Shown here piece by piece: positions 50,547 to 54,733 of a stretch of DNA of 64,000 bases (the stretch's first letter is position 1; the number at the start of each line of letters is the position of its first letter). Under the pieces are notes generated by a model, which saw nothing but the letters and a program-made list of their open reading frames with translations, had not been told where the DNA came from and searched no databases. Origin of the DNA: a virus (Duplodnaviria; Caudoviricetes); the IMG/VR virus record IMGVR_UViG_3300037466_003648, positions 32,001 through 96,000 of that record, one strand, 5' to 3'. A program made the position numbers and the translations under genes.

Positions 50547-51215
50547 ATGAACATCCAAGAGTACCAGCTTGCCGCCGAGAAGACCTCGCCCGCCTATGGG
50601 TTGGTGGCGACGCCCTTGTCGCGTGAAGTTGACGGTGTCATGGTCCTGCACTACGGCATCGTTCCTCGGGACCAGGGTGCGAGCCGCGCTGCCTGGCGTC
50701 TGGCGAACGGCATTGCCGGGCTGGGCTCCGAGTCCTGCGAGCTGGTTGCCTTGACCCTCGACTGGGACAACCAGTTCCCGGACCTGTCGACGATCACCGC
50801 GGCCGACGAGGAAGAGCTGGTCAACCTGGTCAAGAAGGAGTTGGGGGACATCGCCTGGTACATCGCGGAGTCCGCGAGCGCCATGGGCTTCAACCTCGGC
50901 GGCATCACGAACTGGTCGAACGTCCTCGTGGACCACTGTGACTGGGGTCTCAACGCCCTGCAGGTCGCCAAGTACGCGGGTGGGGCGGCCGACTACTTCA
51001 AGAAGCTGGCGTGGCACGACAAGACCATCGACTGGGCCACGGTCGAGAGCCACTTCGCCTGTGCGCTGGGGGCCATCGCCATCCTCGCGAAGACGCTGGG
51101 CTTCACGATCGAGGACGTCCTCGACGCCAACATCGCGAAGTTGTCCGTCCGCTACGAGAAGGGCTTCTCCGGCACCACTTCGGAAGCGCGAGTCGATCTC
51201 GCCGCGGGGGCTTGA
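50547..51215 (+). CDS. MazG-like NTP pyrophosphohydrolase (internally duplicated)
   Basis: EYQ-AA-KT, KKELGDIAWY, NIAKL-VRY. Confidence 0.8.
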   Translation: MNIQEYQLAAEKTSPAYGLVATPLSREVDGVMVLHYGIVPRDQGASRAAWRLANGIAGLGSESCELVALTLDWDNQFPDLSTITAADEEELVNLVKKELGDIAWYIAESASAMGFNLGGITNWSNVLVDHCDWGLNALQVAKYAGGAADYFKKLAWHDKTIDWATVESHFACALGAIAILAKTLGFTIEDVLDANIAKLSVRYEKGFSGTTSEARVDLAAGA

Positions 51216-51241
51216 CAACCAAGGGCACTTCCGCTTAGGAT
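51212..51241 (+). promoter_or_regulatory. sigma70-type promoter for small RNA 1
   Basis: TTGACA-18-TAGGAT. Confidence 0.7.
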
Positions 51242-51247
51242 GGACTT

Positions 51248-51352
51248 GCCCGTGCCAACTGGCGTCTGTGAGGGGTGTTCCCTGTCCCCAACAGTCCACC
51301 CCGTACACAGACGAGAATCGAGCCCCCGATGTCGCGATCGGGGGCTCTTCTC
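51248..51352 (+). ncRNA. candidate antisense sRNA (about 105 nt)
   Basis: own promoter; CGTCTGTG/CACAGACG hairpin with C-rich loop; terminator 51320-51352. Confidence 0.55.
51320..51352 (+). terminator. intrinsic terminator
   Basis: GAGCCCCCGAT-GTCGCG-ATCGGGGGCTC then TTCTC. Confidence 0.65.
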
Positions 51353-51373
51353 ATGGTGATCGATCCTAACCTC

Positions 51374-51403
51374 TTGACGGACGAGCCGGGGTCATGTTAG
51401 GGT
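51374..51403 (+). promoter_or_regulatory. sigma70-type promoter for RNA 2
   Basis: TTGACG-18-TAGGGT with TG. Confidence 0.6.
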
Positions 51404-51408
51404 AGGAT

Positions 51409-51635
51409 CATCTTGGCTCTGGTGGACTGTGGGGACAGGGAGACCAACCGAGATGAAGTCGAAGGGGCTTTATACGCCAGTTCTGCTTCCAGCGTAGGTA
51501 GCGCGTTACCTGCCGTGAACCTCCCCCTGCCTCACTCCGCTGTCGCCTCCGGGTCGATGGCTCTCCTGTGTTGTCTTAGTAAGACACCATTGGATCGGCA
51601 CGAGTGAACTAGGGGTAGGGGGACACGGTTGTTTT
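51409..51635 (+). ncRNA. structured RNA 2 with 14-codon mini-ORF (51453-51497) and long 3' rod
   Basis: rod CCGTG 51513/CACGG 51628 with nested helices, followed by TTGTTTT. Confidence 0.5.
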
Positions 51636-51686
51636 GGAAGTCTCAGCTAACATTACCGCCAGTTTGCGGGCGCGCGAAGAAAGTGC

Positions 51687-51716
51687 TTGACAGATCCGTT
51701 AGGGTCATGCTACTGT
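51687..51716 (+). promoter_or_regulatory. sigma70-type promoter of the tRNA array
   Basis: TTGACA-18-TACTGT with TG. Confidence 0.7.
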
Positions 51717-51722
51717 CACTTT

Positions 51723-51941
51723 CACCGGCTGAAAGAGCCGATCGACCGAAGGAGTTTCCTGTGTTTACGATGGGCAACCAGATTGAAGGAGCCGCCAGCG
51801 GCTCGAATCAGGTCTCGATCGTGACGGTCGATCCGAGCAACGCCGGGCGCCACCCGAAGTGAGTGGCAAGTAGGTCCAAGCCTACAAGGTTCCCGCCCGG
51901 CACCCAGGTCCAAGTGACCAACGGATGCCGGGCTTCTTCTT
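51723..51941 (+). promoter_or_regulatory. structured leader, candidate attenuator with 33-codon leader ORF (51761-51862)
   Basis: GAAGGAG SD; mutually exclusive helices 51842-49/51894-901 vs 51895-902/51926-33 plus TTCTTCTT. Confidence 0.5.
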
Positions 51942-51957
51942 GGGACAACAAGTTTGT

Positions 51958-52030
51958 GGCGGAGTGGGCCAGCGGCTACGCCGGGAGTCTCATAAGCTCC
52001 AGATCGAGGGTTCGAGTCCCTCCTCCGCCC
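51958..52030 (+). tRNA. tRNA-Met or Ile2 (CAT)
   Basis: cloverleaf; GGAGT-CTCATAA-GCTCC; TTCGAGT T-loop. Confidence 0.85.
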
Positions 52031-52061
52031 CCTAATCGTACCTTGACAACCTAACACACTA

Positions 52062-54703: not shown

Positions 54704-54733
54704 TTGACAGATCCCATCTATGTGTGTTAGGGT
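54704..54733 (+). promoter_or_regulatory. internal sigma70-type promoter in tRNA array
   Basis: TTGACA-18-TAGGGT with TG. Confidence 0.65.

Follow-up and report, generated by a model that had tools for sequence, protein, structure and literature searches.

A 64,000-nucleotide stretch of phage DNA (the window: bases 32001–96000 of a 205,180-bp IMG/VR phage record with direct terminal repeats) carries two RNA units, here called locus A, between a gene for a MazG-like pyrophosphatase and an array of transfer RNA (tRNA) genes. These units are probably two adjacent non-coding RNA genes in which a loop of the first product, RNA1, pairs with the target X1 in the 5′ hairpin (H1) of the second, RNA2, forming an RNA-only unit that would control the folding or stability of RNA2. 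Comparison with related loci shows that the predicted RNA1–H1 pairing is under selection, and RNA2 is, by its sequence, an undescribed RNA family with five members (A–E). The DNA originates from soil and rhizosphere metagenomes and belongs to what we take to be a large, probably lytic phage, in which gene callers put no gene at 51216–51700. An earlier note, written from the letters of the window, had read the locus as an 'RNA-only toxin-antitoxin or regulatory switch'; regulatory switch is a fair description, whereas the toxin–antitoxin part found no support. The features on which the argument turns are as follows (nt, nucleotides).

51212–51241, + strand: promoter P1 (−35 TTGACA, 18-nt spacer, −10 TAGGAT; 10/12 matches in the promoter scan)
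51248–51352, + strand: RNA1, a predicted antisense small RNA of about 105 nt, its ends placed from the promoter and the hairpin
51278–51300, + strand: antisense segment UUCCCUGUCCCCAACAGUCCACC, mostly in a 19-nt loop at 51278–51296
51320–51348, + strand: T1, an 11-bp G+C-rich hairpin ending RNA1, then UUCUCAU (−24.5 kcal/mol, z −4.9)
51374–51403, + strand: promoter P2 of RNA2 (−35 TTGACG, 18-nt spacer, −10 TAGGGT)
51410 to about 51680, + strand: RNA2, a predicted structured non-coding RNA of about 270 nt
51421–51442, + strand: X1, the RNA1 target, forming the apical two-thirds of 5′ hairpin H1 (GGUGGACUGU GGGGACAGGGAG)

Pairing between RNA1 and the 5′ hairpin of RNA2

The segment TCCCTGTCCCCAACAGTCCACC (51279–51300) is the reverse complement of GGTGGACTGTGGGGACAGGGA (51421–51441) save for one bulged A, exactly as the earlier note described, and the duplex comprises 22 bp when the U:G pair 51278/51442 is counted. 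In a minus-strand self-BLAST of the 205,180-bp genome, it is the top inverted repeat with arms 40–400 nt apart (34.5 bits versus 27.1 for the next); a gapless inverted-repeat finder omits the pair because of the bulge. RNA1 is predicted to fold into a small 5′ hairpin, the antisense hairpin (51264–51312) and a terminator-like hairpin, in that order, with a minimum free energy (MFE) of −59.3 kcal/mol (z −6.4). As had been claimed, the antisense stretch falls mostly in a hairpin loop, a C-rich one of 19 nt in which CUGU and ACAG form a mini-stem enclosing CCCCA.

The order P1, antisense hairpin, terminator hairpin, P2 and RNA2 is common to A and two other loci. Paralogue B lies 49 kb downstream in the same genome, where nhmmer aligns 51278–51678 to genome positions 132010–132369 (E 5e-9); its P1 (TTGACA, 17 nt, GATGAT) is followed by a hairpin with a 19-nt loop and a 14-bp G+C-rich hairpin, and its P2 (TTGACA, 17 nt, TAACTT) by a 260-nt RNA (sequence L014). 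RNA1 of B has the same two-hairpin layout (z −6.3), and that of orthologue C combines a smaller antisense hairpin with a canonical terminator (z −5.9). The antisense loops of A and B, both 19 nt long, are alike at 16/19 positions, on stems that share no sequence. RNA1 of locus C reads ACGUGUUCCCCAAACACUCC and its target in H1 GAAGUGUUGGGGAACACGU, the two pairing as 11 bp, a bulged A and 6 bp, which is the layout of the A duplex in a different sequence.

When the RNA1 segment was dinucleotide-shuffled 1000 times, 0 (A), 2 (B) and 3 (C) shuffles paired with H1 as well as the native segment (z −5.0, −3.4 and −4.5). The aligned pair table gives a duplex of 22 bp in A and 18 bp in B and in C. Column 3 changes on both sides from C:G to A:U and column 5, likewise, from C:G to G:C; column 20 is G:C in A, U:G in B and C:G in C; and C has a whole pair co-inserted at each of columns 8 and 16. 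Random placement of B's substitution counts would leave a mean duplex of −14.1 ± 4.4 kcal/mol, compared with the observed −28.6 (P about 0.003). Complementarity to the target beyond chance, with compensatory change, is what marks a trans-acting antisense small RNA, and both were found. Covariation in related phages had been named as a check on the pairing, and the duplex is indeed kept with compensatory changes in paralogue B and orthologue C. Judged on the sequences, pairing of the RNA1 loop with H1 is well supported at the RNA level. Once the cost of unfolding is taken into account, the net cofold gain is −14.6 (A) and −18.9 (B) kcal/mol for cognate partners and −4.7 and −9.3 for the cross pairs; in these models the A and B partners would have a partial preference for their own target.

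The three-tier shape of H1 is common to all five loci, and several of its pairs are changed on both sides. Its apex in A, CUGU-GGGG-ACAG, mirrors the mini-stem of the RNA1 loop, CUGU-CCCCA-ACAG, and the modelled mirror hairpins have a kissing-hairpin geometry.

The promoters of what the earlier note called two promoter–terminator units, both of host type, are supported. Motifs of the class TTGACR-N16–19-TANNNT number 12 on the + strand and 0 on the − strand, compared with 1.2 ± 1.1 in shuffled genomes (about 10-fold enrichment), and three of the 12 sites are those at 51212, 51374 and 51687, the last a third promoter. The MazG-like gene ends in a TGA that overlaps the −35 of P1, an arrangement found again, with the same TAGGAT −10, in C (L112 783–812). 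P2 is present in 5/5 loci as TTGACN, 17–18 nt and TA plus four variable bases, in keeping with the tandem units in which the first RNA's loop had been proposed to pair with the 5′ region of the second. Its TTGAC and −10 TA are invariant or nearly so in the A–D alignment and recur in E (L116 3613–3641); since E lacks any upstream RNA unit, RNA2 must own its promoter there. T1 was missed by the terminator scan because its U tract is short. Behind the RNA1 hairpin the U tract is poor in both A and B; the counterpart hairpin in C, a 16-bp stem with UUUU after it, is a canonical terminator. After RNA2, terminator scanning and folding found no intrinsic terminator in copy A, whereas RNA2 of copy B ends in a canonical one. 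The conserved design, as predicted from these elements, is one of two transcription units, and some read-through in A with pairing in cis is possible.

Short motifs recur around these promoters. In A and B, P2 has a GATCGATC-centred palindrome beside or within it. The copy in A, CATGGTGATCGATCC (51353–51367), lies just 5′ of the P2 −35; in B a perfect 16-nt palindrome, CATGGATCGATCCATG (L014 383–398; genome 132082–132097), takes up the whole −35 to −10 spacer. The palindrome may serve as an operator or as a site of methylation. The sequence AGATCCGTT follows RNA2 in both A (51686–51701) and B (L014 719–728), within the spacer of the third promoter in A, whereas in B a GGAGGAG ribosome-binding site precedes it and a TTG start follows; a promoter at window position 54704 also starts with TTGACAGATCC. 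These may represent an extended −35 motif, or coincidence. A promoter at genome position 127201, considered as a third copy of the locus, proved to be merely that of a protein gene.

The RNA2 family and its X elements

The domains of RNA2 in locus A and the elements within them are listed here.

51412–51452, + strand: hairpin H1
51455–51489, + strand: hairpin H2
51494–51513, + strand: hairpin H3
51513–51628, + strand: rod H4 (116 nt)
51513–51533, + strand: X′, a C-rich internal strand like the antisense loop, which pairs with X2 as the rod base
51612–51630, + strand: X2, the block GGGGUAGGGGGACACGGUU, which holds a second copy of the X1 core GGGACA[C/G]GG and complements the antisense loops
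51642–51677, + strand: conserved 3′ tail, with CUCAGCUAAC at 51642–51651, a hairpin CCGC/GCGG at 51656–51669 and GCGGGCGCGCGA at 51666–51677
51453–51497, + strand: 14-codon open reading frame (ORF; MKSKGLYTPVLLPA), judged not to be a gene, in a region that folds as H2 (GAAGGGGC...AUACGCC)

A 116-nt rod had been described and exists; the end then given for RNA2, 51635, did not hold, because blocks shared with copy B reach past it and extend RNA2 to about 51680. The blocks common to A and B are CAUC..GGCUCUG, the target region, GAAGGGGC..ACGCC, GGGGUAGGGGGACACGGUU (X2, identical at 19/19 positions), CUCAGCUAAC and GCGGGCGCGCGA. Across the family, blocks keep a constant order, H1/X1, GAAGGGGC...AUACGCC, X2, CUCAGCUAAC and ACCGCC, the last two retained with small changes in 5/5 loci. 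Pairwise identity is 46–59% (76% for D versus E), in an alignment that is sequence-based and poor in the middle of the rod. Pairs in H1, H2, H3 and the rod base occur as two to four standard pair types among the five sequences, a set too small for R-scape. A profile built from the five RNA2 sequences finds A–E only in the genome and all DNA fetched (E 1e-50 to 1e-72), and loci A–E match none of the 4227 Rfam families (cmscan, E limits 1 to 10). Several known classes were tried and rejected. A transfer-messenger RNA (tmRNA), or a two-piece tmRNA with the mini-ORF as tag, fails for want of an Rfam match and of a conserved tag; T-box, 6S, RNase P, ROOL, GOLLD and Y-RNA-like RNAs likewise gave no Rfam match. 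A CsrA-type sponge was set aside since GGA is not enriched (a hand estimate from base composition) and X1 of C has no GGA.

Loci C, D and E were located through the MazG-like protein, an exhaustive phmmer search with which returned P0065 (48% identity), P0066 (40%) and P0067 (42%); their contigs supplied C (L112), D (L113, L114 and L115) and E (L116). All three carry genes for a RyR-domain protein, a C1 peptidase and MazG in the same order, with RNA2 directly after MazG. RNA2 directly precedes the tRNA array in both A and C, a tRNA-Met gene coming after it in C; protein genes follow it in E. Copy B is last in a + strand block, and beyond it come a terminator of its own, a possible ORF of 93 codons and a minus-strand gene, 3′ end first. 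The differing contexts of A, B and E indicate that RNA2 is a stand-alone gene and not the leader of one particular gene. Locus D has a promoter, a small RNA and a strong hairpin 5′ of RNA2 (L114 628–694) that lack an antisense loop (z −0.5 versus H1), and E has no upstream RNA unit. On this comparison, the antisense module is one gained or lost between lineages.

The target of RNA1 had been taken for the ribosome-binding region of the next transcript. The ORF at 51453–51497 exists, but its start codon is found in A only: no ATG, GTG or TTG stands at the position homologous to ATG 51453 in any of the other four loci, and the ORF region is the conserved hairpin H2. Gaps between A and B measure 1, 1, 5, 7, 2 and 2 nt, not multiples of three, which speaks against coding. 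The peptide, 14 residues long, is not of the membrane-toxin type and not hydrophobic enough to span a membrane. A second match of 9 nt (51257–51265 with 51474–51482) is also real, but arises by chance in 6.5% of shuffles and is not kept in the other loci. With the ORF start confined to A and the 9-nt match unconserved, the proposed analogies with type I toxin–antitoxin loci and with CreT are not supported; we found neither a conserved small ORF for a hydrophobic toxin nor, across homologues, a mini-ORF with a strong ribosome-binding site, the mini-ORF being unique to A. A type I antitoxin would pair with a toxin messenger RNA; pairing of RNA1 with RNA2 has support, and RNA2 does not look like a messenger RNA. 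X1 as predicted is an RNA structure, not a ribosome-binding site.

The target motif is repeated within RNA2. Its core, GGGACA[C/G]GG, occurs six times on the + strand of the genome, four of them in loci A and B. In locus C, X1 and X2 both become GGGGAACACGU, RNA1 becomes ACGUGUUCCCC and X′ becomes ACGUGCUUCCCC; the RNA1 loop, X1, X′ and X2 are thereby shown, by comparison of sequences, all to covary. Predicted duplex energies (kcal/mol) are given by locus.

A: RNA1–X1 −55, RNA1–X2 −32, X′–X1 −21, X′–X2 −34
B: RNA1–X1 −37, RNA1–X2 −32, X′–X1 −23, X′–X2 −34
C: RNA1–X1 −33.5, RNA1–X2 −40.4, X′–X1 −21, X′–X2 −38
D (without antisense): X′–X1 −34.4, X′–X2 −32
E (narrower segments, separate computation): X′–X1 −22.1, X′–X2 −20.2

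Complementarity between X′ and X1 is by far strongest in D (−34.4, compared with about −21 to −23 in A–C) and no stronger in E than in A–C. The full-length MFE structure contains X′:X2 in 5/5 loci (13–17 pairs); when the RNA is cut before X2, X1:X′ appears instead in the MFE of A, B and D. The modelling suggests that X′ is offered X1 first and X2 later, and that RNA1 mimics X′ and competes for X1.

In C and D the upstream small RNA carries at its 5′ end a same-sense copy of a motif from the RNA2 tail, (C)AGCUAAC. In C it is UGCUAACAA, 9 nt identical to the tail (L112 813–821 and 1171–1179), and in D GGCUAAC (L114 630–637; tail copy about 951–958). It may be a shared protein-binding or processing site.

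Proposed action of RNA1 and alternative explanations

We propose that the RNA1–RNA2 duplex would probably start as a CCCC/GGGG loop–loop contact of the two mirror-image hairpins, and that RNA1 would control RNA2 itself and not translation. By occupying X1, RNA1 would decide whether X′ pairs with X1 in the nascent RNA or with X2 only, in the finished rod. Also or instead, its binding may create a long duplex at the 5′ end of RNA2, a substrate for a double-strand RNase. Either way, the fold, maturation or lifetime of RNA2 would be set by RNA1.

Several points weigh against this proposal. That both RNAs exist is a prediction, as are their promoters and ends, and the effect on RNA2 folding or decay is conjecture. 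Loci D and E have RNA2 without the antisense, which makes RNA1 an accessory. The antisense occurs in three loci only, all from uncultured phages, so that the covariation rests on few independent events. The RNA1 hairpin of A lacks a good U tract and may therefore allow read-through and pairing in cis. The B duplex taken alone barely exceeds the genome-wide background of G+C-rich loops (−29.3 versus −27.2 kcal/mol), and RNA1–X2 complementarity lies within that background in A and B. RNA2 alone is little stabler than its shuffles (z −1.3 and −1.9), and the X1:X′ alternative appears in the nascent-RNA fold of 3/5 loci only.

It is possible, if doubtful, that RNA2 is bistable and of a new class, X′ pairing with X1 or X2, with the choice made within the molecule in D and E, and with RNA1 acting in trans in A, B and C as a copy of the X′-like strand. 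If so, the phage would have an RNA-only strand-exchange switch at the head of its tRNA array, which may gate the array or another activity of RNA2. We consider it unlikely that the locus yields a single read-through transcript from P1 whose arms form a long-range stem in a leader before the tRNA array, with no trans-acting small RNA. Such a transcript would fit the UUCUCAU that alone follows the RNA1 hairpin in A, uncalled by the terminator scan, as well as a 401-nt stretch that folds with the arms paired (z −5.7) and the nesting of the 9-nt match outside the main duplex. The c4 RNA of phages P1/P7 and the CI RNA of satellite phage P4, moreover, are cut out of transcripts carrying their targets (PMC8198154 for c4, PMC4825925 for CI). 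It is less easily squared with a P2 in 5/5 loci, E with no upstream unit among them, or with the 16-bp stem and UUUU of C; and the 9-nt match is at chance level (P 0.065) and absent from B and C. It differs from pairing in trans in topology only, and cis pairing on a read-through RNA can coexist with trans pairing.

That RNA2 serves as a decoy or sponge, titrating RNA1 through X1 and X2 away from real targets in host or phage messenger RNAs (mRNAs), seems improbable to us. Its two sites do covary with the RNA1 loop, and X2 is the better partner of the loop in C (−40.4 versus −33.5 kcal/mol for X1). However, a scan of the whole phage genome found no other site above background (host targets lie outside that scan), X2 is buried in the rod base in the MFE of every locus, and the retention of RNA2 in D and E without the antisense implies that RNA2 has its own function. 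The same retention, here of a supposed toxin without its antidote, speaks against a type I or CreT-like toxin–antitoxin locus in which RNA2 carries a toxic element whose translation RNA1 blocks. In A the duplex does cover AGGGAG (51437–51442), 10 nt before ATG 51453, and pairing of about 20 nt from an adjacent, non-overlapping small RNA is as in IstR-1/tisB; but B–E have no start codon, the 14-residue peptide is not membrane-spanning and the ORF region is H2. For the CreTA type in particular, we saw no CRISPR-repeat-like element in RNA1 or nearby and no cas gene among the neighbouring genes examined, no dedicated search having been made. We give a toxin–antitoxin reading hardly any credence. 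Scarcely better placed is a feature of the DNA, in which the arms would be inverted protein sites flanking P2, acting by looping or repression, with the RNA pairing incidental. Measured from the P2 start, the arms stand at about −130 and at +12 to +32; covariation is also expected of inverted sites that bind one protein, and the GATCGATC palindrome lies beside or within P2 in A and B. Yet the change of G:C to U:G at column 20 and the U:G at column 1 keep RNA pairing and not DNA symmetry, each arm sits within an RNA hairpin with compensatory changes of its own, further copies of the motif, X′ and X2, lie within RNA2 well away from the promoter and covary with the arms, and all elements lie on one strand behind promoters.

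Related RNA systems, neighbours and minor observations

The closest known logic to that proposed for RNA1 and RNA2 is that of P1/P7 c4 and P4 CI, although the locus is not a member of those families. The c4 RNA (immI) is an antisense RNA encoded upstream of and adjacent to its target on the same strand, whose loops pair with a short target (Citron and Schuster 1990, cited in PMC8198154). RNA1 resembles it as a phage-encoded, same-strand antisense immediately upstream that pairs through a loop with the neighbouring RNA. It differs in that c4 shares operon and transcript with its target and blocks the protein genes icd and ant in prophage immunity, whereas RNA1 would have its own promoter and terminator-like hairpin and its target is the 5′ hairpin of a non-coding RNA with no conserved ORF after it. 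The Rfam covariance model C4 (RF01695) has no match in loci A–E, and a target at the translation start region of a downstream protein gene, as for C4, is not seen: B–E have no conserved ORF. CI pairs with two similar sites, seqA and seqC, on a neighbouring untranslated transcript (PMC4825925). Such two-site pairing parallels X1 and X2. CI is, however, processed from a leader and has targets on both sides, with premature termination before the replication genes as the outcome; here both sites lie downstream in one structured RNA, and no terminator is placed to respond.

In IstR-1/tisB and OhsC/shoB, a small RNA from an adjacent gene pairs over about 20 nt with an mRNA for a small hydrophobic toxin; pairing length and adjacency are alike here, but the ORF is unconserved and its peptide is not of the toxin type. 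In CopA/CopT of plasmid R1 and RNAI/RNAII of ColE1, complementary hairpins have G/C-rich loops that nucleate pairing, and the antisense is small and strongly folded with its own terminator. RNA1 and H1 are likewise complementary hairpins with G/C-rich loops able to nucleate pairing. In those plasmid systems the two RNAs come from opposite strands of the same DNA and complementarity is automatic, whereas the RNA1 and RNA2 genes are separate and in tandem, and their complementarity must therefore be kept by selection. Among phage RNAs, T4 rnaC and rnaD are stable RNAs within the tRNA cluster, and ROOL and GOLLD are large phage-associated RNAs; RNA2 is like them a structured non-coding RNA beside a phage tRNA cluster, with no sequence or model similarity to them. 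We know of no dedicated antisense partner for any of these four, and tandem-encoded phage antisense RNAs are known from just a few temperate elements (P1/P7 c4 and P4 CI), where they control immunity protein genes. The present locus would apply the same tandem logic to a structured non-coding RNA of no known family, with unusually clear comparative evidence for RNA–RNA contact in its four covarying elements. It offers a new family of RNAs, about 270 nt long, whose five members have diverged and whose domain layout is defined, natural partner pairs (A and B) with partial own-target preference, and a comparison of lineages with and without the trans-acting partner. Should RNA2 act on tRNA expression or translation, the locus would represent a new level at which a phage controls the decoding machinery of its host.

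The immediate neighbours of the locus in the window are these.

50547–51215: MazG-like pyrophosphatase gene, upstream neighbour
From 51958: tRNA array of 32 genes, downstream neighbour

Contigs from four DNA runs represented the same population only. Over 51150–52040 just two single-nucleotide variants occur. One, G>A at 51669, falls in RNA2's small tail hairpin, and the other, A>G at 51718, comes just 3′ of the third promoter's −10. Each is present in 3/7 population contigs, one of these three being also the variant contig of run X4, and neither falls within RNA1, H1 or X2; the duplex region is identical in all seven contigs.

Further searches for relatives gave little. Blastn with the locus and the conserved 3′ domain against 50,697 phage records returned nothing useful, and scans of viral contigs for exact loop and 3′-block patterns returned only a fragment identical to copy B (L016). 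Viral contig scans with the MazG gene and ORF L103:187-2040, a candidate RNA polymerase subunit, found no relatives, and those with the Metallophos and DNA polymerase genes and the phrog_1735 protein only distant ones (20–55% identity). A metagenome-contig scan and a genome-contig scan yielded chance matches only; word-indexed protein searches with MazG, the protein upstream of copy B and Metallophos yielded no close homologue; and a sequence-only model of the 3′ domain had no match in the five closest DNA-polymerase relatives. The contigs of the weaker MazG matches P0068, P0071 and P0077 are not syntenic and are without the RNA.

Converging on copy B from the minus strand is a 1910-codon gene with a glucosaminidase domain (PF01832; genome 132704–138436, L111 4205–9937), probably encoding a virion-associated cell-wall hydrolase or tail protein; an overlapping 1520-codon ORF on the + strand, with no family match, is probably spurious. 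The contig of E carries a group I intron (Rfam Intron_gpI, 79 bits, E 3e-19; L116 339–626) about 2.4 kb 5′ of its MazG gene. In D (L114 1035–1066) and E (L116 3960–3990), RNA2 is followed by an A+T-rich stretch, a TATAAT box and an alternating CG/CA-rich run, ACGCGCGCGTGCGCGTGAGCGCACGCGCGCGT.

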